DNA of 63,842 bases, the filler included, from Deltaproteobacteria bacterium (GTDB taxonomy: Bacteria; JAUYMQ01), in NCBI GenBank assembly GCA_030698575.1. It is 9 parts of 9 records of this genome, joined end to end, with 100 filler letters (N's around TTAATTAATTAA, not from the genome) between each part and the next. Parts side by side here need not be neighbours in the genome. Positions count along the whole stretch, not along the records: positions 12,619 to 17,326 come from JAUYMQ010000615.1; 8 more parts are not named here. One strand, 5' to 3'. The translations under genes were made by a program, and so were the position numbers. Below, piece after piece: positions 3,781 through 63,277 of this stretch. How positions within the stretch are numbered: the first letter of the stretch is position 1; each line of letters starts with the position of its first letter. Below the pieces are notes generated by a model. That model had not been told where the DNA came from. It saw nothing but the letters and a program-made list of their open reading frames with translations, and ran no database searches.

Positions 3781-4932
3781 TCAATCCATCCGCCAGTAGA
3801 GCACCCGGGGCTGGCCATCCTTGCGCTCAATGACCGCATCGAGCCGCGAGCGGCTCTCGTTCACTCGCGCCACGGCCCGGATGCGGAAGACATTGCTGGC
3901 GAACCCGAGCGTGGGCGAAAAGGCCGTTGTGGGATCCACACCGAGAAGATCCCGGAATTCCGTCAGATCGGCAATCCCGATGCCTTGTTTACGGGCATCG
4001 AGAATACGGCCCACGCTCTCCTCGCTGAGCGGCTCGGGTGAGGATGTGGCGTCGTTCTCGCGCATGCCGATTGAACGGAGCACGCGCTCGGGCGCCGTGT
4101 TTACGTTGATCGCCCCGCCCCCGTCAAAGGGGTAGACCGTCACCGCGTCGCGAATAAGGGCGAAGAGCTTGTCGTCGACGCCCTCCACGAGTTGCAGTTC
4201 CGCCACTGAATCGAAAGGGCCGTTCTTTGAGGAGTAGGCATCTTTCAGGCTGTTGTAATACTGATCCTCGAAGCTGCCGTCCGAGAGCCGCGTCTCGTCG
4301 CCGTCGACCCAGTCGGCCACGGCGTAGGCGAAGTCTTCTCCGTCGAAATCCTTGATTTCCCCCTCGTCCTTCCGGTCGAGCGAATCCAGCGCCTCCTGCA
4401 CCAGGATCTTCAGCTCGTCGAACACCGGCCGGTTGAGCTTCTGGGCGCCCGAGGCGTCGCGGATGATGATGGCGTTCACATTGACCCTGCCTGCGAGATC
4501 GTCCACCTCGACACGGAGCGACTCATTGGGCCGGAGCTGCAAATCGAGAAGATCCATTCGTGCCCAGGATTCCTGGAGTGTGTCGATCCCCGAAGCGCCG
4601 GCAGGCGCCCCCGCCTTTTTGCTCTTCTCCGTCGCGTCTGCTTCGTCGCGGGCCTTTTGCAGGAGTTCACTGACGGCTGTGTTCTCGGCCGGTGCGCCGC
4701 CCGTTCCCCCGCTCTCTGTCGCCGCCGCCGCGTCGTCCAGAAGGAGGCTGAGCGCGATCTCGTAACCCGATCGCGAGAGCGCGGATGCAAGCGCGGTGTC
4801 GCGCACATTGGCCGAAAGGCGCGAGTCGAGCCGCGTTCTGAAGCTGAAATCGATGATAACGGCCGTGAGCAGAGTGATAACGAGCACCACCATCAGAAGC
4901 GCGACGCCCCGCTCGCCATCACGGTTTCGCAT
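3781..4932 (-). CDS. gspK: Minor pseudopilin GspK
   Basis: ERG|VALLMVV prepilin site, DLAGRVNVN, ADWVDGD, KNGPFDSVAELQLVEG and INVNTAPERVL motifs. Start at ATG 4932. Confidence 0.9.
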   Translation of the reverse strand: MRNRDGERGVALLMVVLVITLLTAVIIDFSFRTRLDSRLSANVRDTALASALSRSGYEIALSLLLDDAAAATESGGTGGAPAENTAVSELLQKARDEADATEKSKKAGAPAGASGIDTLQESWARMDLLDLQLRPNESLRVEVDDLAGRVNVNAIIIRDASGAQKLNRPVFDELKILVQEALDSLDRKDEGEIKDFDGEDFAYAVADWVDGDETRLSDGSFEDQYYNSLKDAYSSKNGPFDSVAELQLVEGVDDKLFALIRDAVTVYPFDGGGAINVNTAPERVLRSIGMRENDATSSPEPLSEESVGRILDARKQGIGIADLTEFRDLLGVDPTTAFSPTLGFASNVFRIRAVARVNESRSRLDAVIERKDGQPRVLYWRMD

Positions 4933-12518: not shown

Positions 12519-12618
12519 NNNNNNNNNNNNNNNNNNNNNNNNNNNNNNNNNNNNNNNNNNNNTTAATTAATTAANNNNNNNNNNNNNNNNNNNNNNNNNN
12601 NNNNNNNNNNNNNNNNNN
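12519..12618. other. Artificial contig linker; same linker at 17327-17426, 24073-24172, 28235-28334, 42431-42530, 50886-50985, 57864-57963 and 61207-61306
   Basis: Identical 100-nt N-runs with a central TTAATTAATTAA (stops in all six frames). Confidence 0.99.
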
Positions 12619-15600
12619 TGGGGCCGGATCACGGGCGACCTGGTTGGCTATAAGGGAGGCCTCAAGGTCACCAAGGATGCGCCCGAGAGCGCAGGCCAGC
12701 GCCACTACGTCCGCGGTACAATGGCGATGGCGCTCGCCCGGCTGCAGAAGGACCACCCGCAGCTGACGATGAGCGACCTGCAGGCGGTCCTCTGGTACCC
12801 CGAGAAGGATCTGTACGCGATGCACGGGGTGAATGACGAGAGCGGCAAACCGACCGACTACGAGATCGAGACGGCGGCCTACGCCAAACTGAAAGGGATC
12901 AATGATGCCCAAATCGAAGCTGCAGGGATTCAACCCGACGAGACCGCCGGACGAGGCGCAGCCGGTGAACGTAAACAGCCCGGCGTGGGACAAGCTCGCG
13001 AGGGCGCCCGTGAACGAGGAGCAGCAGGAGCAGGAGGCGATGGCGAAGAAGGCGGCGCAGCTGCTCAGCTCTCTCCGAAGAAACAGGGGCAAGTAGACGT
13101 AGTCGGGGTCCACTTCTCGGCGGGCGCGCGCACGAGCTTGAGTGGCGCCTACTTCGGGACGGGGGCCAAGGGGGCGGAGGCGGTCCGCGTGCGCTCGGCG
13201 AAGGACGGCCGCCTGCGCAGTCGCATCTACGCCTACGTCAACACCGGCAGCGGCGTCACGCCGGAGCGCTACGTGGGCGGGGTCGCCCACACGATTCCGC
13301 TCCAGAATCTCTATGATGCCGACTCCGACCCGCCGGATCTCACGCGGCTCGAGGCGAACGCCTTCGAGTCGGCCGTCCTCGACGCCGGCTTCAGCGGCTA
13401 CCTCGTCCGTAGTGGAAAGCAGGCGATCGCGGCCCTGATCGGGCCCGCGTCGCTGGATGTCGCGGTAGAGAACAAGGGAACCCGCTACCGGGGGGAGGAT
13501 CTCGCGGTGCCGCCCGCACCCACGTACTCGCCCCTCGTGCAGCTCACTCTCGCGATCGCAAACAGCAAACTCTTGCCGGGCGGGCAGCTGACGGGGGACG
13601 AGTGGCGCGCGAACGCGCACCTGCAGAAGCTTCTTGGCGACAAGTACGACGCGAGCAAGCTCGAGGGGGACACCCTCTACTACAAGAGCGAGGTCGCGAG
13701 GCTCGTGGGCGAGGGTGTGCAGATGTCGCCGAAGCAAACCCTCGAAACCGACATGCGCGACCAGTCCGCCTGGCTCGATCAGAGAGCGCGCGACGAGGGC
13801 TACGAGAGCGTAGACGCCCTCCCGCCGGAGCGCTTCACGGAGCTGGCGGCCGAGTGGCGCGCCGAGCACCCGCGCATCAGCTTCAGCCCGAAGACGCGTG
13901 CGATGAAGAAGTGGCTCGAGGGGAGCGCGGTGCGGGACGTCGTCTATCACGGCACGAGCACCGATTTTACGGCGTTCAACACCGACGACACTACTGAGCT
14001 GGGCGCTCACTTCGGCACAACCGCCCACGCAAACGATCGCGTTGGCGCATACACAGACTCTCGCGTGATTCCGGTGTATCTCAACCTCAAGAACCCGCTA
14101 CGGCTTATCGACGAGGGCACTTTTGCTCCCTACGCCGTCGCTGGGCAGCTCGCCGATCTGGGCATCCTGCCCCAAGAGCAACTGGGGCGGTTTGTTAACA
14201 AGCACACCGTTGGGGTGGTGAACAAAGAAGTGCCCCTCTCGGAAGAGTTGAAGCGAATCATAGAGCGCGCGGGTTATGACGGCGTTGTATATTTGAATCG
14301 GCGCGAAGGTTACGACGGCAGTGCCGTAGTTTGGGCGGATGCGGAGCTGAACCCCGAGTTGTCGGACGCGGAGTGGACCGCAATACATCCCGGCGGGGGC
14401 GATTCCTACATCGCCTTCCATCCCAAACAGATAAAATCCGTCTTCAACGAACGCCCCGACGACAGCGCGCAGTTCAGCCCTAAAATCGTCGGCGACAGCA
14501 AGCGCCCGTACACGCCGGAGCAGCGTCGTTTCTTCAAACACACCGGCCGTGAAATAGAGAAGCCCTCCTCCGCCGACAGGTTCAAAGCGCTGAAACAAGA
14601 CCTCGGGATGAAGATGGCCCAGGGTCTGGTCGACCAGTTCGCGCCCCTGAAGGCGCTCTCGCCCATGGCCTACATGCTCGCGCGCCTCTCCAAAGGCTCG
14701 GCCGGCGCCCTGGAGGCCTTGCTTCACCACGGAAAACTCCGCCTCCGGGGTGGCGCCTTCGATGCGGACCGCAGCGGCGGCTTCATTCAGCGCGTGGGCA
14801 TCCCGCTGCATGGCGAGCTCGAGGACTTCCTCTGGTGGGTCGCCGCCAACCGCGCCGAGCGCCTCACCGCGCAAGACCGCGAGCGCCTCTTCTCGCGCTC
14901 GGACATCGCCGCCGGCAAGTCGCTCGCGAGCGGCAACCTCGCCACCGAGTACACGCTCCAGAGCGGCCAGAAGACGCGCGTGCGCGCGCAGGCCTACGCC
15001 GACTCGCTCAAAAAATTCGAGGAGTTCAACCGGAACGCGCTCGACATGGCCGAGCAGTCGGGCCTCATCGACCCCGCGAGCCGCAAGATCTGGGAGAACG
15101 AGTTCTACGTCCCCTTCTACCGCGTCTCTGAAGAGGAGGGCGGCTTCGTAGGCGCGAACATCGGGAACGCCCTCGTGCGCCAGCGCGCGTTTAAACACCT
15201 GAAGGGGGGCGAGCAGAAGCTCCATTCCGACCTCCTCGCGAACACGATAGCGAACTGGGCCCACCTCATCGATGCTTCCGCAAAGAACCGGGCGGCGAAG
15301 GCGTCGCTCGAGGCGGCCGCCAACATGGGCGTCGCTGTCGAGGCCGACGCCGCGACGGTCGCCTCGATGGGTCGCTCTATCAGCAAGAGCGGCGTCTGGT
15401 TCATGGACGGGGGCGTGAAGCGCCACTACCTGGTCGAGGACCCCTTCGTCCTCACCGCGATCACGTCGCTGGAGTACTCGGGCATGAAGGGTCCTCTGAT
15501 GGATGCGATGTCGACGATGAAGCACGTCCTCACCGTCGGCGTCACCGCCTCCCCCTTCTTCAAGGTGAAGAACCTGATCCGGGACTCGCTCCAGGCGATC

Positions 15601-17031
15601 GCGGTCGCCCCGATCGGGGCCAACCCGCTCACGAACATCCGCGAGGGTATCGCCGCGAGCGAGCACTCGACACAGACCTACGTCTCCGCCCTCGCCTCCG
15701 GCGGCCTGATCCGCTTCGGGACAATGCTCGAGGGGCGCATGTCGGACCGCGTCCGCCAGCTTATCAAGTCCGGCGTCAAGGAGACGACGATCCTGAACAG
15801 CGACTCGAAGCTCCGGGCGATGTACGACCGCTACCTCGAGCCGGCGGTGATCGCCTACAACGAGCTCGGAAACCGATCGGAGGAGATCACGCGGGCCGCC
15901 CTCTACAAGCAGCTCACGGACAAGGGCATGTCACATGCCGAGGCGAGCCTGATGGCGCGCGACCTGATGGACTTCTCCCTCCAGGGGAGCTGGAGCGGGA
16001 TTCGCTTTCTAACTCAGGTCGTTCCGTTCATGAACGCCCGGATGCAGGGCATCTACAAGCTCGGGCGTGGCGCCGTGGAAGATCCCCGCCGCTTCGCGGC
16101 GGTAATCGGGGCGACCGCGATGTTCTCGATCGCGCTGATGGCCGCCTACGGCGACGATGACGACTGGAAAAAGCGCGAGGAGTGGGACCGGGACAACTTC
16201 TGGTGGTTCAAGGTCGGGGGGACCGCCTTCCGGATTCCGAAGCCCTTCGAGGTGGGCGCGATCGCGACGCTCGCCGAGCGGGGGCTCGAGTACTTCACGA
16301 GCCCCGAGATGACGGGCGAACGCTTCAGGAAAGTCACGCTCGATATCCTGGCGAACAACCTCTCGATGAACCCGGTGCCACAGCTCCTCAAGCCGGTCGT
16401 CGACATCTACGCGAATAAGGACAGCTTCACCGGGCGTCCGATCGAGACGCTGGGGATGGAGCGCCTGCAGCCCGACTACCGCTTCAACGCCCGCACGAGC
16501 ATGCTCGCGCGCGCGGCCGGCACGGCCGGGCAGACAGTGGCGGAGACCGTCGGGGCCGATTTCATTTCGCCCCTGATGATCGACCACGCCCTGCGCGGCT
16601 ACTTCGGCTGGCTCGGGAGTTTCATCGTCGGGACGGCGGACCTACTCGCGCGTCCGATGACGGGTGAGGCCGAGCGCCCGGCTGGCGACCTCTGGAAGCT
16701 CACCACCGGCAACATGATCGCCGAGCTGCCTACCGACCAGTCGCGTTACGTAAGCCAGATGTACGAGCAGGCCAGGGTGATCGAGCAGGCGTACGGCACC
16801 TACCGGAGCCTGCTGAAGCAAGGGAAGGGCGAGGAGGCGCGCGAATTTCTTGAAGACAATCGCGACAAACTCACGAAGTACCGCGGCGTCCAGCAGGTGA
16901 AACGGGCCGAGGGGCAACTCAACGAGCGCATCCGCATCATCGAGCAGAGCACCCTCGACCCCGAGGCGAAGAGGGTCGCGATCGCAGCGATCGCCGCACA
17001 GAAGGACCGGGTCGCGCGGCTTGTCAAGTAG
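12619..17031 (+). CDS. Phage-type large polyvalent protein (ART-PolyVal-like domain + C-terminal LPD38), 5'-truncated
   Basis: Frame is open from the contig start. VYHGTSTDF..GAHFG..VIPVYLNLKNPL..GYDGVVY..YIAFHPKQIKS is ADP-ribosyltransferase-like; WDRDNFWWF..RIPKPFEVG..ANKDSFTGRPI is LPD38-like. Confidence 0.85.
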   Translation, partial: WGRITGDLVGYKGGLKVTKDAPESAGQRHYVRGTMAMALARLQKDHPQLTMSDLQAVLWYPEKDLYAMHGVNDESGKPTDYEIETAAYAKLKGINDAQIEAAGIQPDETAGRGAAGERKQPGVGQAREGARERGAAGAGGDGEEGGAAAQLSPKKQGQVDVVGVHFSAGARTSLSGAYFGTGAKGAEAVRVRSAKDGRLRSRIYAYVNTGSGVTPERYVGGVAHTIPLQNLYDADSDPPDLTRLEANAFESAVLDAGFSGYLVRSGKQAIAALIGPASLDVAVENKGTRYRGEDLAVPPAPTYSPLVQLTLAIANSKLLPGGQLTGDEWRANAHLQKLLGDKYDASKLEGDTLYYKSEVARLVGEGVQMSPKQTLETDMRDQSAWLDQRARDEGYESVDALPPERFTELAAEWRAEHPRISFSPKTRAMKKWLEGSAVRDVVYHGTSTDFTAFNTDDTTELGAHFGTTAHANDRVGAYTDSRVIPVYLNLKNPLRLIDEGTFAPYAVAGQLADLGILPQEQLGRFVNKHTVGVVNKEVPLSEELKRIIERAGYDGVVYLNRREGYDGSAVVWADAELNPELSDAEWTAIHPGGGDSYIAFHPKQIKSVFNERPDDSAQFSPKIVGDSKRPYTPEQRRFFKHTGREIEKPSSADRFKALKQDLGMKMAQGLVDQFAPLKALSPMAYMLARLSKGSAGALEALLHHGKLRLRGGAFDADRSGGFIQRVGIPLHGELEDFLWWVAANRAERLTAQDRERLFSRSDIAAGKSLASGNLATEYTLQSGQKTRVRAQAYADSLKKFEEFNRNALDMAEQSGLIDPASRKIWENEFYVPFYRVSEEEGGFVGANIGNALVRQRAFKHLKGGEQKLHSDLLANTIANWAHLIDASAKNRAAKASLEAAANMGVAVEADAATVASMGRSISKSGVWFMDGGVKRHYLVEDPFVLTAITSLEYSGMKGPLMDAMSTMKHVLTVGVTASPFFKVKNLIRDSLQAIAVAPIGANPLTNIREGIAASEHSTQTYVSALASGGLIRFGTMLEGRMSDRVRQLIKSGVKETTILNSDSKLRAMYDRYLEPAVIAYNELGNRSEEITRAALYKQLTDKGMSHAEASLMARDLMDFSLQGSWSGIRFLTQVVPFMNARMQGIYKLGRGAVEDPRRFAAVIGATAMFSIALMAAYGDDDDWKKREEWDRDNFWWFKVGGTAFRIPKPFEVGAIATLAERGLEYFTSPEMTGERFRKVTLDILANNLSMNPVPQLLKPVVDIYANKDSFTGRPIETLGMERLQPDYRFNARTSMLARAAGTAGQTVAETVGADFISPLMIDHALRGYFGWLGSFIVGTADLLARPMTGEAERPAGDLWKLTTGNMIAELPTDQSRYVSQMYEQARVIEQAYGTYRSLLKQGKGEEAREFLEDNRDKLTKYRGVQQVKRAEGQLNERIRIIEQSTLDPEAKRVAIAAIAAQKDRVARLVK

Positions 17032-17038
17032 CAGTTGC

Positions 17039-17067
17039 TTGACACAGCCGGCGGTTGCGCGTATAGT
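17039..17067 (+). promoter_or_regulatory. Near-consensus sigma70 promoter TTGACA-N17-TATAGT
   Basis: -35 at 17039-17044, 17-bp spacer, -10 at 17062-17067. Confidence 0.8.
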
Positions 17068-17119
17068 GTCAATTGCTTACTGCAGCAAGGGACAGATCAA
17101 TCAGACGGAGGAAACCCAG

Positions 17120-17143
17120 ATGAAGAGCGACCGGAAAGCATAA
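17120..17143 (+). CDS. Putative 7-aa minigene MKSDRKA
   Basis: GGAGG (17107-17111), 8-nt spacing, then ATG AAG AGC GAC CGG AAA GCA TAA. Confidence 0.5.
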   Translation: MKSDRKA

Positions 17144-17165
17144 GTACCCGCAGTTGATTGAACGC

Positions 17166-17198
17166 AAGGGCTCCCCACGAGGGGGCCCTTTTTATTTT
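17166..17198 (+). terminator. Rho-independent terminator
   Basis: AAGGGCTCCC-CACGA-GGGGGCCCTT hairpin followed by TTTATTTT. Confidence 0.85.
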
Positions 17199-17226
17199 GG
17201 ACAGAGTGTCTAGCAAATGCTAGTCT
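17198..17226 (+). promoter_or_regulatory. Second sigma70-like promoter TGGACA-N17-TAGTCT with overlapping palindrome
   Basis: 17-bp spacing; CTAGCA-AA-TGCTAG palindrome overlaps the -10; AGAGG RBS and GTG downstream. Confidence 0.45.
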
Positions 17227-17251
17227 ACCCAATCGCAACGAGAGGAACCCC

Positions 17252-17326
17252 GTGACGCCTCAGCAGTGGATAACGCTGATGCTGGCCTCCACCAGCGTCC
17301 ACTACCTGGTAGCGGCCGCAGCGTAT
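17252..17326 (+). CDS. Small hydrophobic phage protein, 3'-truncated
   Basis: AGAGG RBS and GTG start; MTPQQWITLMLASTSVHYLVAAAAY open to the contig end. Confidence 0.5.
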
Positions 17327-17426
17327 NNNNNNNNNNNNNNNNNNNNNNNNNNNNNNNNNNNNNNNNNNNNTTAATTAATTAANNNNNNNNNNNNNNNNNN
17401 NNNNNNNNNNNNNNNNNNNNNNNNNN

Positions 17427-17907
17427 GTGGAACTTCTCGGGGTCCATCATCATCGGAAAGACCCCGTCGGCGACCTCGCCCGCGCAGCGCAGGCCTGCCG
17501 GACTGATCGACGCCGTGTAGATCGGAATCGCGGGGTTCCCGTGGAGGATGCTCTTCAGCGGCTTGCCGAGGCCCGTGGTGCCTTTTCCCTTTGCGGGGAT
17601 CTCGAAGTCGCTGCCGTTGAACTCAAGCGGCTTTTCGCGGGCGAGGATCTGGCGGATGATGCGGATGTACTCGCGCGTGCGGGTGAGCGGCTTGCCATAG
17701 GGGACTCCGTGCCAGCCCTCGATGACCTGGGGCCCGGAGGCGCCGAGGCCGAGGATGAACCGCCCGCCAGAAAGGTGGTCGAGCGTCATTGCCGTACGCC
17801 TCGGCCGTCCAGGCCGAATCGAAGCCGAGTTCCTCCGCACGCCGGATCAGATCGAGATTGACCTGGGCCTTCGAACCGAAACCCAGGGCGCTGATTCCGA
17901 GCTTCAT
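17427..17907 (-). pseudogene. LLM-class (luciferase-like, probably F420-dependent) oxidoreductase with internal deletion and frameshift; 3'-truncated
   Basis: [25 protein letters not shown] jumps frame directly into [30 protein letters not shown] at 17783-17795. Confidence 0.85.
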
Positions 17908-18764
17908 GGCGTTTCCTTCGTGCCCCTGGTCTTGGGCAGGTCGACGAACTCGCCAGCGCGCTTCTGGGCGTTGGCGGCCATGGCCTCCATGATCTCGTCC
18001 GGCTGAAGCATGCTGGCGTTCCAGACCCCGACGTAGTCGAGCGTGTCGGCGGTCGAGTGATCGCGCGCATAGTTGATCAGGCGCTTGCAACCATAGATCG
18101 CCAGCGGCGCCTTGCGGGCAATCTCTCGCGCGATGCCCATGACCTCCTCCAGCATGGCCTCCTGATCCGGAAAGACCCGGTTCACCAGACCCACCGACTG
18201 AGCCTCGGCGGCGGGCATGCGGCGCCCCGTGTAGGCCAGCTCGCGCGCCACCCCTTCGGGAATGAGCTTCGCTATGCGCGGGAAGGTCCCGACATCCGCC
18301 GTCATGCCGATGTTTATTTCGTAGATGGTCAGGAAAGCGTCCTTCGTGGCGTAGCGCATGTCGCAGGCCGTCACGAGATCGACGCCCCCGCCCACGCAAC
18401 CGCCCTGGATGGCTGCGATCACCGGAAGCCGGCAGGACTCGAGCGAGGAAAAGGTGCGCTGCATGCTCTGCACAATGAGATGGAACTTCGCGCCATGCTG
18501 GAGCCGCGCCTCTCGCTCTGTCGCGGGATCGTCGCTCTGCACGGCCAGGCCGGCAAAAGCGTTCACGTCGAGCCCCGAGGAGAAATGGGGCCCCGTGGAG
18601 GAGATGACGATGACCCGCGCGCGCGCGTTCTCGTCGATATCCTGGACAATGCGCGGCAGCTCGTCCCAGAACTCCGGGATCATGCTGTTGCGCTTCTCGG
18701 GCCGGTTCAGGACGATGTGCGCGATCTTCTCGTCGATGTTCACGTCGAAACAGCGGTAGGTCAT
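17904..18764 (-). CDS. Enoyl-CoA hydratase/isomerase (crotonase family)
   Basis: LNRPEKRNS, HFSSGLD, PVIAAIQGGCVGGGVDL and EINIGMTADVG motifs. Confidence 0.92.
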   Translation of the reverse strand: MTYRCFDVNIDEKIAHIVLNRPEKRNSMIPEFWDELPRIVQDIDENARARVIVISSTGPHFSSGLDVNAFAGLAVQSDDPATEREARLQHGAKFHLIVQSMQRTFSSLESCRLPVIAAIQGGCVGGGVDLVTACDMRYATKDAFLTIYEINIGMTADVGTFPRIAKLIPEGVARELAYTGRRMPAAEAQSVGLVNRVFPDQEAMLEEVMGIAREIARKAPLAIYGCKRLINYARDHSTADTLDYVGVWNASMLQPDEIMEAMAANAQKRAGEFVDLPKTRGTKETP

Positions 18765-18971
18765 TCTCGGTCCTCCTGCGTTGGGCGCGGGATGTCCGTC
18801 GCCGGCCCGCGGCGCGTGAACGGTCCGGGCCGCGATGGTAGCGGGCGTCGGAAAACGGAATTTGGGTCAGGCCAGGGAAAACTTCGCATCGAGCGCGCCC
18901 CGCCCGGGGCCCTTCGCTGCGGAGCTGTCTATTATGACATATACTGCCGGGAAAATTCCGACGGAGGAACC

Positions 18972-19919
18972 ATGCGATTCGACAACCGCGTGACCCGTAT
19001 GCTGGGCGTCGACACCCCGATCGTCCAGGCGCCCATGGGCTGGATTGCGCGATCGCAACTCGCCTCGGCGGTCTCGAATGCCGGCGCCATGGGAATCATC
19101 GAGACCTCTAGCGGCGAGCTGGATGCCATTCGCGGGGAGATCCAGCGGATGCGCGAACTCACGGATCGGCCCTTCGGTGTGAACATCGCCCAGGCATTCG
19201 TGCGCGACCCGGCCATCGTCGACTTCGTCATCGGGCAGGGCGTGCGCTTCGTGACGACCTCCGCCGGAGATCCGACGAAGTACACCCGGCAGCTGAAGGA
19301 TGCCGGGCTCACGGTCTTCCACGTTGTTCCCACCCTCCGCGCCGCCCTGAAGGCCGTCGATGCCGGAGTCGATGGCCTGGTGGTCGAGGGGGGCGAAGGG
19401 GGCGGTTTCAAGAATCCGCGCCCGGTTTCATCCCTCGTGCTTCTGCCGCTTGTCCGCTCGCGTGTCGACGTGCCGATCATTGCGGCGGGAGGCATCTGCG
19501 ACGGCGTCTCGATGGCCGCCGCCTTCGCGCTCGGAGCTGAGGGCGTCCAGATGGGCACGCGCATGGTCTCTGCGTCGGAATCGCCCGTCCACGACGGGTG
19601 GAAGCAGGCCATCGTCGCGGCGGCGGAGACCGGCACCTCTTTTCTGCGCTGCGAAGGGGGGCCGGCCCTGCGCGCGCTTCGTACCGCCCGCACGGATCGG
19701 CTGGAGCGAGGCGAGGGGCATCCCATGATGGATCTGGCCGCGGGTATCCAGCAGGTCTATTTCGGAGGCGATCTGGAAGCGGGCGTGGCGCTTTCGGGCC
19801 AGGTGGCGGGTCGCATCGAAGCGGTGGAGCCCGTGGCCGTGATCATCGAACGAACCGTGCGCGAGTTCTCGGAGACGGTGGAGAATCTCGCCAAGCGCTA
19901 CGCCACCTCGCAGGCGTGA
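18972..19919 (+). CDS. Nitronate monooxygenase / FabK-like flavin oxidoreductase
   Basis: PIVQAPMG, PFGVNI, VVEGGEGGG, PIIAAGGI and GVQMGTR motifs; GGAGG RBS before ATG 18972. Confidence 0.9.
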   Translation: MRFDNRVTRMLGVDTPIVQAPMGWIARSQLASAVSNAGAMGIIETSSGELDAIRGEIQRMRELTDRPFGVNIAQAFVRDPAIVDFVIGQGVRFVTTSAGDPTKYTRQLKDAGLTVFHVVPTLRAALKAVDAGVDGLVVEGGEGGGFKNPRPVSSLVLLPLVRSRVDVPIIAAGGICDGVSMAAAFALGAEGVQMGTRMVSASESPVHDGWKQAIVAAAETGTSFLRCEGGPALRALRTARTDRLERGEGHPMMDLAAGIQQVYFGGDLEAGVALSGQVAGRIEAVEPVAVIIERTVREFSETVENLAKRYATSQA

Positions 19920-21706: not shown

Positions 21707-21781
21707 TGGTGGTCCCTACGGGAATCGAACCCGTGTTACCGACGTGAGAGGCCGGTGTCCTAACCGCTAGACGAAGGGACC
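21707..21781 (-). tRNA. tRNA-Glu(CTC)
   Basis: GGTCCCT acceptor stem, anticodon arm CCGGC-CT CTC AC-GTCGG, GGTTCGATTCC T-arm and encoded CCA. Confidence 0.97.
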
Positions 21782-21810
21782 GTAACGGCGCGTGCGGTGC
21801 GTAGAATTCT

Positions 21811-21884
21811 TGGTTGGGGGACTAGGATTCGAACCTAGGTTACCGGGGCCAGAACCCGGCGTCCTGCCGCTAGACGATCCCCCA
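21811..21884 (-). tRNA. tRNA-Gln(CTG)
   Basis: TGGGGGA acceptor stem, CCGGG-TT CTG GC-CCCGG anticodon arm, GGTTCGAATCC and encoded CCA. Confidence 0.97.
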
Positions 21885-24072: not shown

Positions 24073-24172
24073 NNNNNNNNNNNNNNNNNNNNNNNNNNNN
24101 NNNNNNNNNNNNNNNNTTAATTAATTAANNNNNNNNNNNNNNNNNNNNNNNNNNNNNNNNNNNNNNNNNNNN

Positions 24173-28234: not shown

Positions 28235-28334
28235 NNNNNNNNNNNNNNNNNNNNNNNNNNNNNNNNNNNNNNNNNNNNTTAATTAATTAANNNNNNNNNN
28301 NNNNNNNNNNNNNNNNNNNNNNNNNNNNNNNNNN

Positions 28335-42430: not shown

Positions 42431-42530
42431 NNNNNNNNNNNNNNNNNNNNNNNNNNNNNNNNNNNNNNNNNNNNTTAATTAATTAANNNNNNNNNNNNNN
42501 NNNNNNNNNNNNNNNNNNNNNNNNNNNNNN

Positions 42531-49318: not shown

Positions 49319-50086
49319 TCATGCGGACGGCCTGGAGTCGGGGCCGTGTGCGGCGCTGCGGGCCCGCTGGTGAAGCCGATAGCTCTTGCCCTGCATCTGG
49401 ATGAGCTCGGCGTGGGCGAGGAAGCGATCGAGGATCGCGGTGGCCGCGGGGACGTCGCCGAGGAACTGGCCCCAGTCCTCCGTGGGCCGGTTCGTGGTGA
49501 TGAGGGTGGAGGCCGACTCGTGGCGGCGGACGAAGATCTCCAGCAGATCCTCGGCCGCGCTGGGGCCGAGCTTCTTCATGCCGAAGTCCTCCAGCACGAG
49601 GAGATCCACGCGGGTGAGCGCGTCGACCAGGGCGCGCCTTTCGCCTGAGGCCTCGGCTTCGAGGAAGTCCTGGGCGAGGTCGAAGACGCTGCGGAGGCGG
49701 GCCCGGTAGCCGGCACGGATCGCGCCCACGGCGATGGCCACGGCGGCGTGCGTCTTGCCGATGCCGGGTGGGCCGATGAGCAGCACGCCCTGGTGGGAGG
49801 CGACGAAGCGAGCGGTGGCCAGCTCGACCAGCCTGGCCCGGGGGATCTTCGTATTGAAGGTGAAGTCGAAGTCCGAGAGTTCCTTGACCTGCACGATGCC
49901 GGCCTGCTTGAGACGGCGGGCGAAGAGGCGGTCGGCGCGGCGCGCGAGTTCGTCGCCCACGAGCAGTTCGAGGAATTCGAGATGAGCCAGGGGACTGCTC
50001 CGGGCCTGCTCGAGGCGCACGGGCAGGGCCTCGGCCATCCCGGAGAGGCGAAGGTGGCGAAGCTGGGTTGCGAGCTGGGGGTTCAT
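49319..50086 (-). CDS. istB: IS21 helper ATPase IstB
   Basis: LRLSGM, GPPGIGKTH, LVLEDFG, ITTNRP, AILDRF and GKSYR motifs. Confidence 0.95.
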   Translation of the reverse strand: MNPQLATQLRHLRLSGMAEALPVRLEQARSSPLAHLEFLELLVGDELARRADRLFARRLKQAGIVQVKELSDFDFTFNTKIPRARLVELATARFVASHQGVLLIGPPGIGKTHAAVAIAVGAIRAGYRARLRSVFDLAQDFLEAEASGERRALVDALTRVDLLVLEDFGMKKLGPSAAEDLLEIFVRRHESASTLITTNRPTEDWGQFLGDVPAATAILDRFLAHAELIQMQGKSYRLHQRARSAAHGPDSRPSA

Positions 50087-50885
50087 AGGAACTCCTTGAG
50101 TGAGTACTGCGTTATGGGACGGATGGAGGGGTGCTCTTCGAGGAGAGACCGCTGGGCGGGGCCGGGGGCCTGCTCGGCGAGGCGGCGCAGCGCCTTGAGG
50201 CGGAACTGGCGATGCTCGAGGGCCAGGCGGGCTGCCCGAAGCACTCGCTCTCGGGGATGCTTGCGGGTCAGCGCGAGGGCGCCCTGGATGAGGCGCATCG
50301 CCCGGACCCCGCGCTCGGCGTGAGCCTGTTCGGCCCACTGCCGCAGTTCTGCGCCCACCTGCTCGCAGCGACCCAGCAGGCGTGCAAGCCAGACCTTCTG
50401 AGACGACGTCTCGGGCGAAGGACCCCCGGGCCTGGGAGCGTACTGGCCTGCGGCGACGCGCGTGTGGACGGCGACCTGGCACTCGCCGTCGTAGACCCGC
50501 ACGAGCCTTCGATACCAGCGCACCCGCACGAGCCTGCCGAGCAGGTGAGGCGGCACGGGGTAGAACGCGCCGCGGACTTCGACGTGGCCGTCCGGGTGAA
50601 CGCTGCGTGTGCCGGACTCGAAGAAGTCGAACGCCTCGCTCGGGATCGGAGACAGGGCCGGCTTGTCGGTCGCGAGGAAGTGAGCGAACACCTGCCGGCG
50701 CGTCGTGCCGTGAATTCGCAGCCGCGCGATCGTGCGGTTCCAGTGCCGAAGGAACTCGTTGTGCTCGGCGAGACTACCAAAGCGCCGGCCCTTCAGGGCG
50801 TTGCCCTTGACGTAGCCGCCGCTGCGCTCCTGCTTGCCGTTCTCCTTCGGGTTGCGGGGGCGGGTGGGAAGCGGCGTGAAGCCCC
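50083..50885 (-). CDS. istA: IS21 transposase IstA, 5'-truncated
   Basis: PRNPKENGKQER..YVK, RIHGTT and VHPDGHVEV..YPVP motifs. Confidence 0.9.
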
Positions 50886-50985
50886 NNNNNNNNNNNNNNN
50901 NNNNNNNNNNNNNNNNNNNNNNNNNNNNNTTAATTAATTAANNNNNNNNNNNNNNNNNNNNNNNNNNNNNNNNNNNNNNNNNNNN

Positions 50986-53640: not shown

Positions 53641-54489
53641 TCAGGCGGGCGGTGCAGGAATGCGCGAGAGCGAGCTGACGAGCAGTTCGAAGATGGGACC
53701 CCGCCTGTCAGGGCGCGAATTGATGAGCCGGTTGACCTTGACTGCCTCGAGGGGGAGCCCCTCGTAGAGCCCCCGGGTGAACCGGACGTCGGAGTTCGAA
53801 AGCAGCGCGTAAACCTTCTTCTTCCGCAGCCGCCGGAGCGTCCTTGCCAGGCGATCCTGCTCCGCGGGGCCGAAGGGCAACCGGTCGTAGGCGGTGAAGC
53901 TCGACGTCGTCGAGACGGGGACGTAGGGGGGATCGAAGTAAACCACGTCTCCCGGTTCCGCCTTTTCAACGAACGCTTCGAAATCACCCACCCTTATCTG
54001 CACGCCCTGCATGACCCGCGAGGCCGCCCTCAGATTGTCCCGATCAAGAATACGGGGGTTCTTGTAGCGCCCGAAAGGGACGTTGAAGCGCCCCGTTCGA
54101 TTGACGCGGTACAGGCCGTTGTAGCCCGTGCGGTTCAGGTAGATGAGCCGCGCCGTCCGCGCGGCCAGGCCCAGCCGCGCAGGGTCCTGCGCGCGGACGC
54201 CGTAATAGGTGTCGCTGTCGTGCGGTTTACGGGAGAGACGGGCAAGCCGGGAGATTACGCCTTCGACGTCGTCGCGAACGCCCAGATAGGCATCGACCAG
54301 TTCGCGATTCTGATCGCCGATGATCGCCCGCCGGAAGGCGCCGCGGGCTGCCAGGGCGAAAAAGACGGCACCGCCGCCGAGGAAGGGCTCATAATAGGTG
54401 ACGCAGCGCTCGGGCAGGCGAGACAGGATTTCGGGGAGAAGCTGTCGCTTGCCCCCCGCCCATTTGAGAAACGGCACTGCTTCTTTCAC
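53641..54489 (-). CDS. dam: Dam/DpnM-like DNA adenine methyltransferase
   Basis: FLKWAGGKRQL, EPFLGGG, YNGLYRVN..FNVPFG, YFDPPY and LSNSD motifs. Confidence 0.9.
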   Translation of the reverse strand: MKEAVPFLKWAGGKRQLLPEILSRLPERCVTYYEPFLGGGAVFFALAARGAFRRAIIGDQNRELVDAYLGVRDDVEGVISRLARLSRKPHDSDTYYGVRAQDPARLGLAARTARLIYLNRTGYNGLYRVNRTGRFNVPFGRYKNPRILDRDNLRAASRVMQGVQIRVGDFEAFVEKAEPGDVVYFDPPYVPVSTTSSFTAYDRLPFGPAEQDRLARTLRRLRKKKVYALLSNSDVRFTRGLYEGLPLEAVKVNRLINSRPDRRGPIFELLVSSLSRIPAPPA

Positions 54490-57795: not shown

Positions 57796-58027
57796 GCGCG
57801 GTATTCCTGTCTGTGGGGATAGAGTGCCCGCCCCCCGCGGGCGCCGGGACGCTAACGTGATTTNNNNNNNNNNNNNNNNNNNNNNNNNNNNNNNNNNNNN
57901 NNNNNNNTTAATTAATTAANNNNNNNNNNNNNNNNNNNNNNNNNNNNNNNNNNNNNNNNNNNNGGAACGCAGCCGGACGCTGCGGCGGTCAGGACAGCCA
58001 GGGCCAGGAGTGCGCGCGGGATGTTTT

Positions 58028-61206: not shown

Positions 61207-61308
61207 NNNNNNNNNNNNNNNNNNNNNNNNNNNNNNNNNNNNNNNNNNNNTTAATTAATTAANNNNNNNNNNNNNNNNNNNNNNNNNNNNNNNNNNNNNN
61301 NNNNNNCG

Positions 61309-61445: not shown

Positions 61446-61922
61446 TCACCGGGGCCTGTCGTTACCTCCACAAACTCCGTCTAGCCCCCTCCTCCCGCAA
61501 AGCCTTGCCCACATGCGCTGCTGCTTGGCCCACTCGGGTGTGGCCGCAAGGGGACGCAGGTCACGTTCCGAGATGGGCGTTCGGCCCTTCGTTGTGGGGG
61601 GGAGGCCGAGGATTGACTCCTGGATCTCGGGAGCAAGGTGCAAGAGGTTCATGATCTGCGTGACCCTGGAACGAGAAACGCCCGCCAGGCTCGCGAGGTC
61701 GGCGTGGTCCCTGATCTCCCCCGAGCGGAGGAGGCCCTCGAAGCGATGGGCCAGGGCGAGAAGACGGGCGACGCGAGGGACCGCTCCGGGGACGGCGGGC
61801 CGGAGATCTCCGCCCACCTTGAGGCGCTTACGACCGTTGCCCACGCGAGCGAAGTGGACCTGGCACTCAAGCCTCCATCCGCTGGCAGCGCGTTCCTCGG
61901 GGTAACCCACCTCCGTCTTCAT
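61446..61922 (-). CDS. Recombinase-associated HTH hypothetical protein
   Basis: VPRVARLLALAH..LAGVSRSRVTQIMNLLHLAPEIQE; ATGA-coupled to the recombinase. Confidence 0.8.
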   Translation of the reverse strand: MKTEVGYPEERAASGWRLECQVHFARVGNGRKRLKVGGDLRPAVPGAVPRVARLLALAHRFEGLLRSGEIRDHADLASLAGVSRSRVTQIMNLLHLAPEIQESILGLPPTTKGRTPISERDLRPLAATPEWAKQQRMWARLCGRRGLDGVCGGNDRPR

Positions 61923-63277
61923 GCCGGGGCCTCCTCCCCCGTAACGCCAAGTTCCTCGGTAAGCGCCTGGACGCCCCCGGGACGGATGGAGAGAGCGAGC
62001 GTTCCGCTGCGTCCGTCATACTCCACCCGCTCCAGCAGAAGGCGCACGATCCGCGCCTGCTCCCTTGAAAAGAGCGTCTCCCAGACCGGGTAAAGCACCG
62101 AGAAGGCTGACGCGAGGCGCCCCGCCTCGGTGCCTTCCACCCCCTCAGCCGCGAGGTCCGGAGCCTTGCCCATCGCCCGGAGGCGTTCCATGACAAACCG
62201 CTCGATCTCCCGCGCTGGGAGCGCTCCCGTAGGGCACTCGGCCCACCCCTGCTTCTGGGCCTTGAGGCAGACGTAGTAGCGGTATCGCCTCTGCCCCTTC
62301 ACCGTGTACGTGTGCACCATCGTCGTGCCGCAAGGGGAGCATCGGAGGAGCCCCGCGAGAAGCACCTCATGCTTCACGCGCACGGACCTTCTCCCGGTCA
62401 GGCCGTTGCCGCGCAGGACCTTCTGGACTTGCCTCCAAACGTCCCGATCCACGATCGCCGCATGCTCTCCCGCGTAGATCGTCCCCTTGTAGTTCACCTC
62501 ACCGAGGTAGATGACGTTCGTGAGAAGCGCAAAGAGATTTGTCTTGTCAAATGACCGCCCCTGGCGCTCGCGCCCTTTCTTCGTAGTCCACGACTTCGTC
62601 GTCCACGCCCGGCGTCGAAGCTCGGCCGCCGCGGCGATGAGCGACCGCTCCCGGAGGTAGAGGTCAAAGATCGCCTTCACCTGCTCTGCTTCCGTCTCGT
62701 TCAGGAGCAGCCGTCCGCCCTGGGGGTCGACGTCGTAGCCCAGCACCGGCATTCCACCCACCCACTTCCCCTTCCGACGCGCGGCCGACATCTTGTCCCG
62801 CGTGCGCTCGGCTATCATCTCCCGCTCGAACTGCGCGAACGAAAGCAGGATGTGCAGAACCAGCCGCCCCATCGAGGTCGCAGTGTTGAACTGCTGGGTC
62901 ACCGAGACGAAGGCGACCCGGTGGGCGTCGAGGATCTCCATGATCCGGGAGAAGTCCAGAAGGGCGCGGGAGAGACGGTCGACCTTATAGACGACGACGC
63001 AGCCCACTCTGCCGGCCCGGATGTCCCCGAGAAGCTGCCGCAGGCCCGGCCGCTCTATGTTCCCACCCGAGAAGCCCCCGTCGTCGTAGCGGGTGGGGAG
63101 GACCTCCCACCCTTCTCCGCGCTGGCTTCGGATGAACGCCTCGGCCGCCTCCCGCTGGGCATCCAGGGAATTGAAGTCCTGGTCCAGGCCCTCGTCGGTC
63201 GACTTGCGGGTGTAGATGGCGCACCAGACGGACGAGGGCTTCTGCGCCGACCCCCTCCCATTGCCATTCTTCTTCAT
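61919..63277 (-). CDS. Large serine recombinase (resolvase + recombinase + Zn-ribbon domains)
   Basis: CAIYTRKST catalytic Ser, YDDGGFSGG, YKVDRLSR, FAQFERE, GGMPVLGY and LAGLLRC..C..YYVC..C. Confidence 0.95.
   Translation of the reverse strand: MKKNGNGRGSAQKPSSVWCAIYTRKSTDEGLDQDFNSLDAQREAAEAFIRSQRGEGWEVLPTRYDDGGFSGGNIERPGLRQLLGDIRAGRVGCVVVYKVDRLSRALLDFSRIMEILDAHRVAFVSVTQQFNTATSMGRLVLHILLSFAQFEREMIAERTRDKMSAARRKGKWVGGMPVLGYDVDPQGGRLLLNETEAEQVKAIFDLYLRERSLIAAAAELRRRAWTTKSWTTKKGRERQGRSFDKTNLFALLTNVIYLGEVNYKGTIYAGEHAAIVDRDVWRQVQKVLRGNGLTGRRSVRVKHEVLLAGLLRCSPCGTTMVHTYTVKGQRRYRYYVCLKAQKQGWAECPTGALPAREIERFVMERLRAMGKAPDLAAEGVEGTEAGRLASAFSVLYPVWETLFSREQARIVRLLLERVEYDGRSGTLALSIRPGGVQALTEELGVTGEEAPA

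Follow-up and report, generated by a model that had tools for sequence, protein, structure and literature searches.

A small promoter-to-terminator unit behind a phage polyvalent protein gene as a candidate source of a trans-acting RNA

What is specified when a promoter, a ribosome site, a frame of seven codons and an intrinsic terminator are packed together directly behind a very large phage gene? The question is raised by a stretch of DNA from the draft assembly of a Deltaproteobacteria bacterium (GCA_030698575.1), in which such a unit follows the gene for a polyvalent protein. The window referred to below is the whole stretch of DNA that was analysed, 63.8 kb in length, and all positions are counted along it unless another locus is named. 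The promoter, the 5′ hairpin, the Shine-Dalgarno (SD) sequence, the seven-codon open reading frame (ORF), a pair of complementary octamers and the terminator, all listed in an earlier note on this DNA, are found in place, and the remark made there that gene callers would miss the unit is upheld. The reading favoured here, with a probability of roughly 0.45, is that the stretch is a small, autonomous transcription unit which selection has maintained in an uncultivated phage and which would yield a trans-acting regulatory RNA.

The promoter (P1) begins 7 nt past the stop codon of the polyvalent gene and is far beyond chance. When the 4.7-kb contig that carries the unit is shuffled, a site with matches at 11 or more of the 12 consensus positions turns up in 0.3% of cases. 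P1 is the sole promoter-like site in 15000–19500, and among the four sites in the whole window with at least 10 of 12 matches, it alone has a terminator within 400 nt. The pairs of the terminator hairpin show predicted probabilities of 0.57–1.0. The ribosome site, GGAGG at 17107–17111, lies 8 nt upstream of the ATG at 17120. The G+C content is 0.53 over 17086–17200, as against 0.63–0.64 in the polyvalent gene.

A counterpart of the unit is found in one relative. The last 443 residues of the polyvalent protein served as query for related loci, of which 170 were taken: the best 80 of 149 viral contigs, 10 genome contigs and the best 80 of 232 metagenome contigs. The 400 nt past the stop codon of each gene were scanned for promoter and terminator signals, with 167 evaluable loci that represent 139 distinct stretches. 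A promoter with at least 10 of 12 matches together with a terminator is found after the polyvalent gene at a single evaluable locus, L102, on a 60-kb groundwater contig. L102 is also the closest of the 170 relatives, with a protein identity of about 71% (71.6% over the last 443 amino acids). The layout that the earlier note proposed to look for behind relatives of this gene is therefore present in L102 and absent from the other 166 evaluable loci. A BLASTN search of 17031–17327 against the related loci gave nothing, and the L102 unit emerged by way of the signal scan only. Related phage DNA of about 1.0 Mb contains 65 promoter-like sites, and at only two of them does a terminator lie within 250 nt: at the L102 unit and at a site that encloses an ordinary small gene.

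In L102 the promoter, TTGACA-17-TATCAT, is situated 3 nt past the stop codon of the polyvalent gene. An SD sequence, AAGGA, is found 8 nt upstream of an ATG that opens a five-codon frame (MRLTS) ending in TAG. The terminator consists of a 10-bp hairpin (3954–3977) followed by a T tract, and the counterpart of the SD-AUG block of the window is at 3895–3917. Despite internal insertions and deletions, both phages place the ATG 52 nt from the −10 hexamer and the terminator stem 22 nt from the mini-ORF stop codon; the two frames differ by exactly two codons.

Alignment of the window unit with the L102 unit gives a score of 72.5, where shuffled sequences give 15.5 ± 4.8 with a maximum of 29.5; the two agree at 107 of 156 aligned bases. 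Taken by itself, the transcribed core has a score of 33, a value matched by one of 500 shuffles. The stretch past the terminator is not conserved (14.5, shuffles 9.8 ± 3.0). In the polyvalent gene itself, where amino-acid identity is 70.6%, third positions of identical four-fold-type codons are 44.6% identical, compared with 35% expected by composition, so that synonymous-type sites are near saturation. Neutral sites of this kind being nearly scrambled, an alignment of the unit so far above shuffles points to selection on the unit. This agrees with the claim of the earlier note that the unit is a dedicated and self-contained one: the same layout at the same site in L102, conserved above near-saturated synonymous-type sites, argues for it.

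Conservation is uneven within the unit. Both phages retain the −35 and −10 hexamers, the block CAGACG-R-AGGA...CAGATGA, short flanking blocks and the terminator, but not the promoter spacer. In the terminator, two stem pairs are changed on both sides yet still paired. The SD-AUG block is the best conserved transcribed part. The encoded peptide is not kept, as MKSDRKA of seven codons and MRLTS of five differ in both length and sequence. With the peptide free to vary and the ribosome-site block best kept, the working part would be the RNA or the binding of ribosomes to it, and not the peptide.

The unit also stands apart from what follows it. The downstream gene is a hydrophobic ORF in the window and an SprT-like gene in L102, where the SprT-like match has 23.9 bits, just below the Pfam cut-off of 25.6. 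Both phages show a second, weaker promoter-like site directly after the terminator, which in L102 is TTGACT-17-TACAGT at 3984–4012. The corresponding segment of the window, 17194–17231, probably serves the downstream gene as a second promoter (P2), one that is regulated. As these signals are arranged, the unit is autonomous and separate from a downstream gene that has its own promoter-like site.

Variants from the source habitat add to this picture. The stretch occurs in two DNA runs from a single groundwater study, and contigs from them were aligned to 16700–17327. Records 4 and 12 of these habitat contigs carry identical copies of the unit. A 162-nt contig of run X2 matches 17039–17096 and 17187–17237, with 53 other letters in place of the 90 letters of 17097–17186. 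This allele has the same promoter and T tract, a different core and hairpin, and a depth similar to that of the window allele. Another habitat relative, 89% identical at the gene end, departs at 17031 and is without the unit; its unaligned end shows, after 8 letters, a T tract and a sequence resembling the second-promoter region of the window. Judged by these variants, the unit comes and goes as a module. Several further habitat contigs match only 17194–17226/31, with a summed depth of up to 92.8, and where readable the sequence beyond consists of a ribosome site and an ATG. Such stand-alone matches to 17194–17231 indicate a repeated promoter- or operator-like element, which would appear to represent a family of phage promoters or operators that are regulated. 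No second copy of it is found in the window and none in viral_contigs.

Table 1. Coordinates of the unit, its flanking features and the linkers of the window.
Feature	Position	Strand	Details
Promoter P1	17039..17067	+	TTGACA 17039–17044, 17-nt spacer, TATAGT 17062–17067; 11/12 matches
Predicted RNA, ~120–125 nt	17075..17198	+	both ends predicted from promoter and terminator signals
5′ hairpin	17073..17088	+	TTGCT 17073–17077 / AGCAA 17084–17088, 6-nt loop
Best-conserved transcribed block	17102..17123	+	CAGACG-GAGGA-AACC-CAGATGA; SD 17107–17112, start codon 17120
Mini-ORF	17120..17143	+	ATG AAG AGC GAC CGG AAA GCA TAA; 7 sense codons, MKSDRKA
Candidate long-range enclosing stem	17097..17161	+	TCAATCAG 17097–17104 / TTGATTGA 17154–17161; would enclose SD and ORF
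Intrinsic terminator	17166..17198	+	hairpin 17166–17190, 10 bp, 7 G-C, loop 5; then TTTTTATTTT
P2-like repeated element	17194..17231	+	TGGACA-17-TAGTCT; palindrome CTAGC-AAAT-GCTAG in spacer
Hydrophobic downstream ORF, start	17252..17326	+	GTG after AGAGGA; cut by contig end
Polyvalent protein gene	12619..17031	+	frame open to contig start; stop TAG 17029–17031
Linkers	12519–12618, 17327–17426, 24073–24172, 28235–28334, 42431–42530, 50886–50985, 57864–57963, 61207–61306

In the reading favoured here, the near-consensus sigma-70 promoter past the polyvalent-gene stop codon would drive an RNA of about 120 nt. Its start is set 7–8 nt past the −10 hexamer and its end within the T tract; the RNA would thus run from near 17075 to the T tract and would end at the same terminator as the polyvalent-gene mRNA. 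The terminator would also end transcripts of the polyvalent gene, and since it is common to both, the small RNA would be the tail of that message. The RNA would most likely be a regulatory small RNA (sRNA) that acts in trans, with messages of the host or of the phage as its targets. Ribosome binding may be what counts, whether for stability or as the function proper; otherwise the purine-rich block would serve as a pairing surface.

A trans-acting RNA is ranked first here because trans-acting phage RNAs of like size with intrinsic terminators are documented. StxS is such an sRNA, produced from PR′-tR′ of Stx phages (PMC7547250), and LPR1/PreS at tL2a of lambda is another (bioRxiv 10.1101/2024.10.31.621285). 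The predicted RNA resembles StxS, LPR1 and lambda 6S in being a short RNA (about 60–200 nt) of a phage promoter or operon with an intrinsic terminator and a U tail. It differs from them in that the unit shows no sequence or Rfam similarity to these RNAs and follows a polyvalent gene, not an antiterminator gene or the early left operon. Host-encoded sRNAs of the DapZ/MicL type have their own promoter and a terminator in common with the upstream gene, are bound by Hfq and carry defined seeds. The unit is like them in having a promoter at the end of the upstream gene, an RNA that would form the 3′ end of the mRNA, a common terminator and a U tail of at least 6; it is unlike them in the place of its promoter, just past the stop codon, and in having a ribosome site as its conserved block. 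Its layout is equally that of a moron, though of one that lacks a protein gene. The unit forms a small new family within a kind of element already known.

Several observations weigh against a trans-acting RNA. The unit is known from signals in DNA sequence alone, and the promoter was scored by the E. coli sigma-70 consensus, which may not be that of the host. A strong SD sequence with an AUG is odd for a base-pairing sRNA, and a translated element or a cis-acting leader would fit it at least equally. A target search within the two loci gave none above shuffles, the best duplexes being −40.7 and −41.2 compared with shuffled means of −46.4 and −44.9. The predicted fold of the window RNA is no better than that of shuffled sequences (z = −0.53; 52 of 200 shuffles as good), and that of the L102 RNA gives z = −0.63. 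The homologous sequences number only two, too few to bear an argument from structure or covariation, and their consensus fold consists of the terminator and a 3-bp helix. The view downstream is short as well, as the contig stops 130 nt after the unit.

Other structures of the unit have less to offer. The octamers of Table 1 had been taken in the earlier note for a stem that encloses the ribosome site and ORF. A stem of at least 8 bp is found in 8.6% of shuffles, however, so that this one is undistinctive. It has an ensemble probability of about 45%, and the fold that contains it (−31.5 kcal/mol) lies 0.6 above the minimum free energy of −32.1 kcal/mol; the octamer stem is thus a plausible alternative fold by this modelling. 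As a conserved structure it does not hold, for it is absent from the consensus fold and the aligned L102 bases do not pair. An alternative GATTC/GAATC pairing in L102 was considered for it and rejected, with a probability of about 0. The 5′ hairpin of the window has a pair probability of about 0.3, and with an RNA start near 17075 only three of its five pairs would lie within the RNA. The L102 5′ hairpin is a different one, with a GAAA loop, at about 3871–3880 and with a probability of 0.83.

Database searches place the unit outside described families. The Rfam search proposed in the earlier note gives no known RNA class over the unit at the gathering score. With E up to 10, only weak matches are found, and these cover the terminator hairpin; the scores are 20.9 bits against a threshold of 55 for Phe_leader and 19.7 against 50 for ctRNA_p42d. 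An ARAGORN scan of the unit for tRNA and tmRNA gives nothing. At the nucleotide level 16400–17327 has no match among named phages and plasmids, and the window and L102 units searched against phages at E up to 1 give chance matches of hairpin size only. Exact 20-nt and 29-nt stretches of the window have 0 matches in viral_contigs. The pattern CAGACGRAGGA-N3-6-CAGATGA was tried there also and returns 32 loci, all of them ordinary gene starts or in-frame coincidences, with the promoter and terminator in none. The two units also served to train a covariance model (R1), which, applied to the window and to 171 loci, recovers its training sequences only; a hit at L130 (12.9 bits, E = 1) was inspected and rejected as a homologue.

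The SD sequence and AUG upstream of a terminator raise the alternative that the unit is a cis-acting checkpoint for the genes downstream, by read-through of the PR′-tR′/Q type or by leader-peptide attenuation, with the short RNA as a by-product. We consider this unlikely. In its favour, the order of promoter, short frame, terminator and same-strand genes is the same in both phages, and so are the spacings from −10 hexamer to ATG and from stop codon to stem. In Achromobacter phage CF418P1 lysis genes follow the giant gene, and the downstream ORF of the window is hydrophobic, as would be expected of a holin. The short transcript from PR′ can serve as an sRNA in its own right (PMC7547250). An ORF starts inside the short 6S RNA of lambda (bioRxiv 10.1101/2024.10.31.621285), and here too an ORF begins within the short transcript, but the mini-ORF of the unit is complete and ends before the terminator.

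Other observations argue against it. The centroid fold of the window RNA is the terminator alone, and no structure competes with it. A ribosome halted 22 nt upstream would not be expected to reach the stem, and neither mini-ORF shows a repeated regulatory codon. The two phages have different downstream genes, the stretch past the terminator is unconserved and each downstream gene has its own promoter-like site past the terminator. The upstream gene encodes a polyvalent protein, not an antiterminator, and no −10-like pause element is seen in the first 15 transcribed bases of either unit. In comparison with PR′-tR′, a promoter and a nearby terminator are present; the window downstream gene is cut at 25 codons, and the genes downstream in L102 are not lysis genes. 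The trp and phe leader-peptide attenuators likewise have a short frame upstream of an intrinsic terminator and then same-strand genes. The unit lacks their antiterminator pairing, regulatory codon run and conserved downstream genes, the genes behind it have their own promoter-like site, and the weak Phe_leader match is confined to the terminator hairpin.

A somewhat more doubtful alternative is that the unit is incidental or a relic, in which the terminator ends the polyvalent operon and the promoter and ribosome site are left over from a moron whose gene was deleted. A terminator would be needed in any case, and there is no significant fold, Rfam match or known target. The absence of the unit from 166 of the 167 evaluable relatives and from one close habitat relative suggests that it is dispensable. 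A relic would be expected to decay, yet the hexamers, the SD-AUG block and the terminator are kept despite near-saturated synonymous-type sites, and for both phages to show this short state at one and the same site, an old deletion would have had to occur and then be conserved. A moron is an independent phage unit with its own promoter and terminator (PMC3594210). The unit is similar to a moron in its own sigma-70 promoter and intrinsic terminator, its position between conserved phage genes, its presence in some relatives only and its lower G+C content than its neighbours. A moron carries a protein gene, however, and the unit only a frame of 5–7 codons with an unconserved peptide.

The conserved SD-AUG block with a free peptide might also be read as a minigene like the bar elements of lambda, in which translation of the short frame is the function, by way of peptidyl-tRNA drop-off, sequestration of tRNA or ribosomes, or load on peptidyl-tRNA hydrolase, and would slow host translation at some stage. 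This we regard as improbable. The strong SD sequence (GGAGGAA; AAGGA in L102) is found 7–8 nt from the AUG, the frame is kept and the peptide is not, and the best conserved transcribed part is this very block. Codon 2 in L102 is AGA, used 4.2 times per 1000 in L102 genes; in the window, codon 5 is CGG and the final AAA and GCA are of low use (6.0 and 6.8 per 1000 in the bacterial genes of the window). Early AGA/NGG codons and short frames favour drop-off in E. coli, according to PMC2490762. The same source has inhibition declining from 3 to 8 codons, so that a frame of seven codons would make a weak minigene. CGG is not rare, with 25.2 per 1000 in bacterial genes, and the argument from codon use is based on two frames.

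Known bar elements fit in part. The unit shares with them a ribosome site, an AUG and a frame of very few codons, carried by a phage transcript, and the peptide does not matter in either. Frames of bar are two codons long and are found inside long early transcripts, whereas those of the unit have seven and five codons and stand between their own promoter and terminator. Two further points count against a minigene: the toxicity of bar elements shows in hosts with too little peptidyl-tRNA hydrolase, and these elements are not known to have a role in normal infection. If the unit were a minigene all the same, it would be the first bar-like element shown to be under purifying selection and to be an exchangeable cassette with its own promoter and terminator, with alleles of different cores circulating in one aquifer population.

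That the unit is a gene for the micro-peptide MKSDRKA or a CsrA/RsmA sponge RNA, both suggested in the earlier note, is highly improbable: a good ribosome site and start codon and four GGA motifs are present, but the peptide is unconserved, at least four GGA motifs are found in 21% of shuffles and are therefore undistinctive, L102 has two GGA motifs with only the SD one shared, no set of hairpin loops displays the motifs in the fold or the pair probabilities, and the Rfam CsrB/Rsm families give no match at E up to 10.

The surroundings of the unit in the two phages can be described as follows. The contig at 12619–17326, a phage contig of 4.7 kb, holds one large gene, the unit and the first 25 codons of the hydrophobic ORF, which has no Pfam family. 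The large gene is truncated at its 5′ end by the contig start, the called ORF being 12721–17031, and displays the Pfam domains LPD38 (8.4e-36) and ART-PolyVal (6.3e-15). Within the L102 segment 3984–6326 the SprT-like gene comes first, then ORFs of 407, 107 and 48 aa, none of which has a Pfam family; the 107-aa ORF shows an HExxH-like motif, and the 48-aa one is a membrane ORF. Identity of the downstream ORF of the window with the 48-aa membrane ORF was considered and rejected, as the two do not align. An integrase fragment follows these ORFs on the opposite strand, which suggests that the phage group is probably temperate.

Other relatives carry other sequences behind the giant gene. Many relatives (L003, L005, L007, L042 and L084) seem, from the letters of the first 200 nt behind the polyvalent gene, to have a short hydrophobic ORF on the opposite strand at the place of the unit. 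Achromobacter phage CF418P1 (L203; OQ817832.1, 8822–17894) encodes a homologous giant protein with 40% identity over the LPD38 region, and directly behind its gene come those for a peptidoglycan hydrolase and an Rz-type endopeptidase. The giant protein is annotated as 'putative portal', an annotation that seems doubtful.

The window as a whole consists of nine contigs joined by eight linkers of the form N...TTAATTAATTAA...N, a six-frame stop, and ORFs that seem to span linkers are artefacts. The eight contigs other than that of the unit carry genes of bacterial chromosomes; 28 of 32 large ORFs scanned on them match ordinary bacterial or mobile-element families, among them type II secretion and pilus proteins, GluRS, Lon, MreB and DnaJ. 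The window is for this reason taken to be a draft bin of bacterial DNA that includes a single fragment of a phage or prophage; a contiguous single phage genome is the wrong picture of it. An IS21-type IstB ATPase (49322–50482), a Dam-type N6-adenine methyltransferase (53644–54489) and a large serine recombinase (61922–63277) are further mobile-element pieces of the bin. Two tRNA genes (21710–21884, minus strand; 64.2 and 60.7 bits) are found beside the GluRS gene on a bacterial contig.

Should the unit amount to a terminator and a leftover promoter only, it would be ordinary. As a selectively maintained unit with a possible trans-acting RNA it would matter in several ways. Small RNAs of uncultivated phages are almost unmapped, and this is a unit recognisable from sequence alone: a compact element in a high-GC background, with a promoter and terminator that look strong on their letters. 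It is kept between phages whose neutral sites are scrambled and yet is modular within one habitat. If the RNA is made, the unit would be a test case for what a phage may gain from a short RNA at the end of its largest gene, and also for a translated mini-frame with a free peptide as a functional element.

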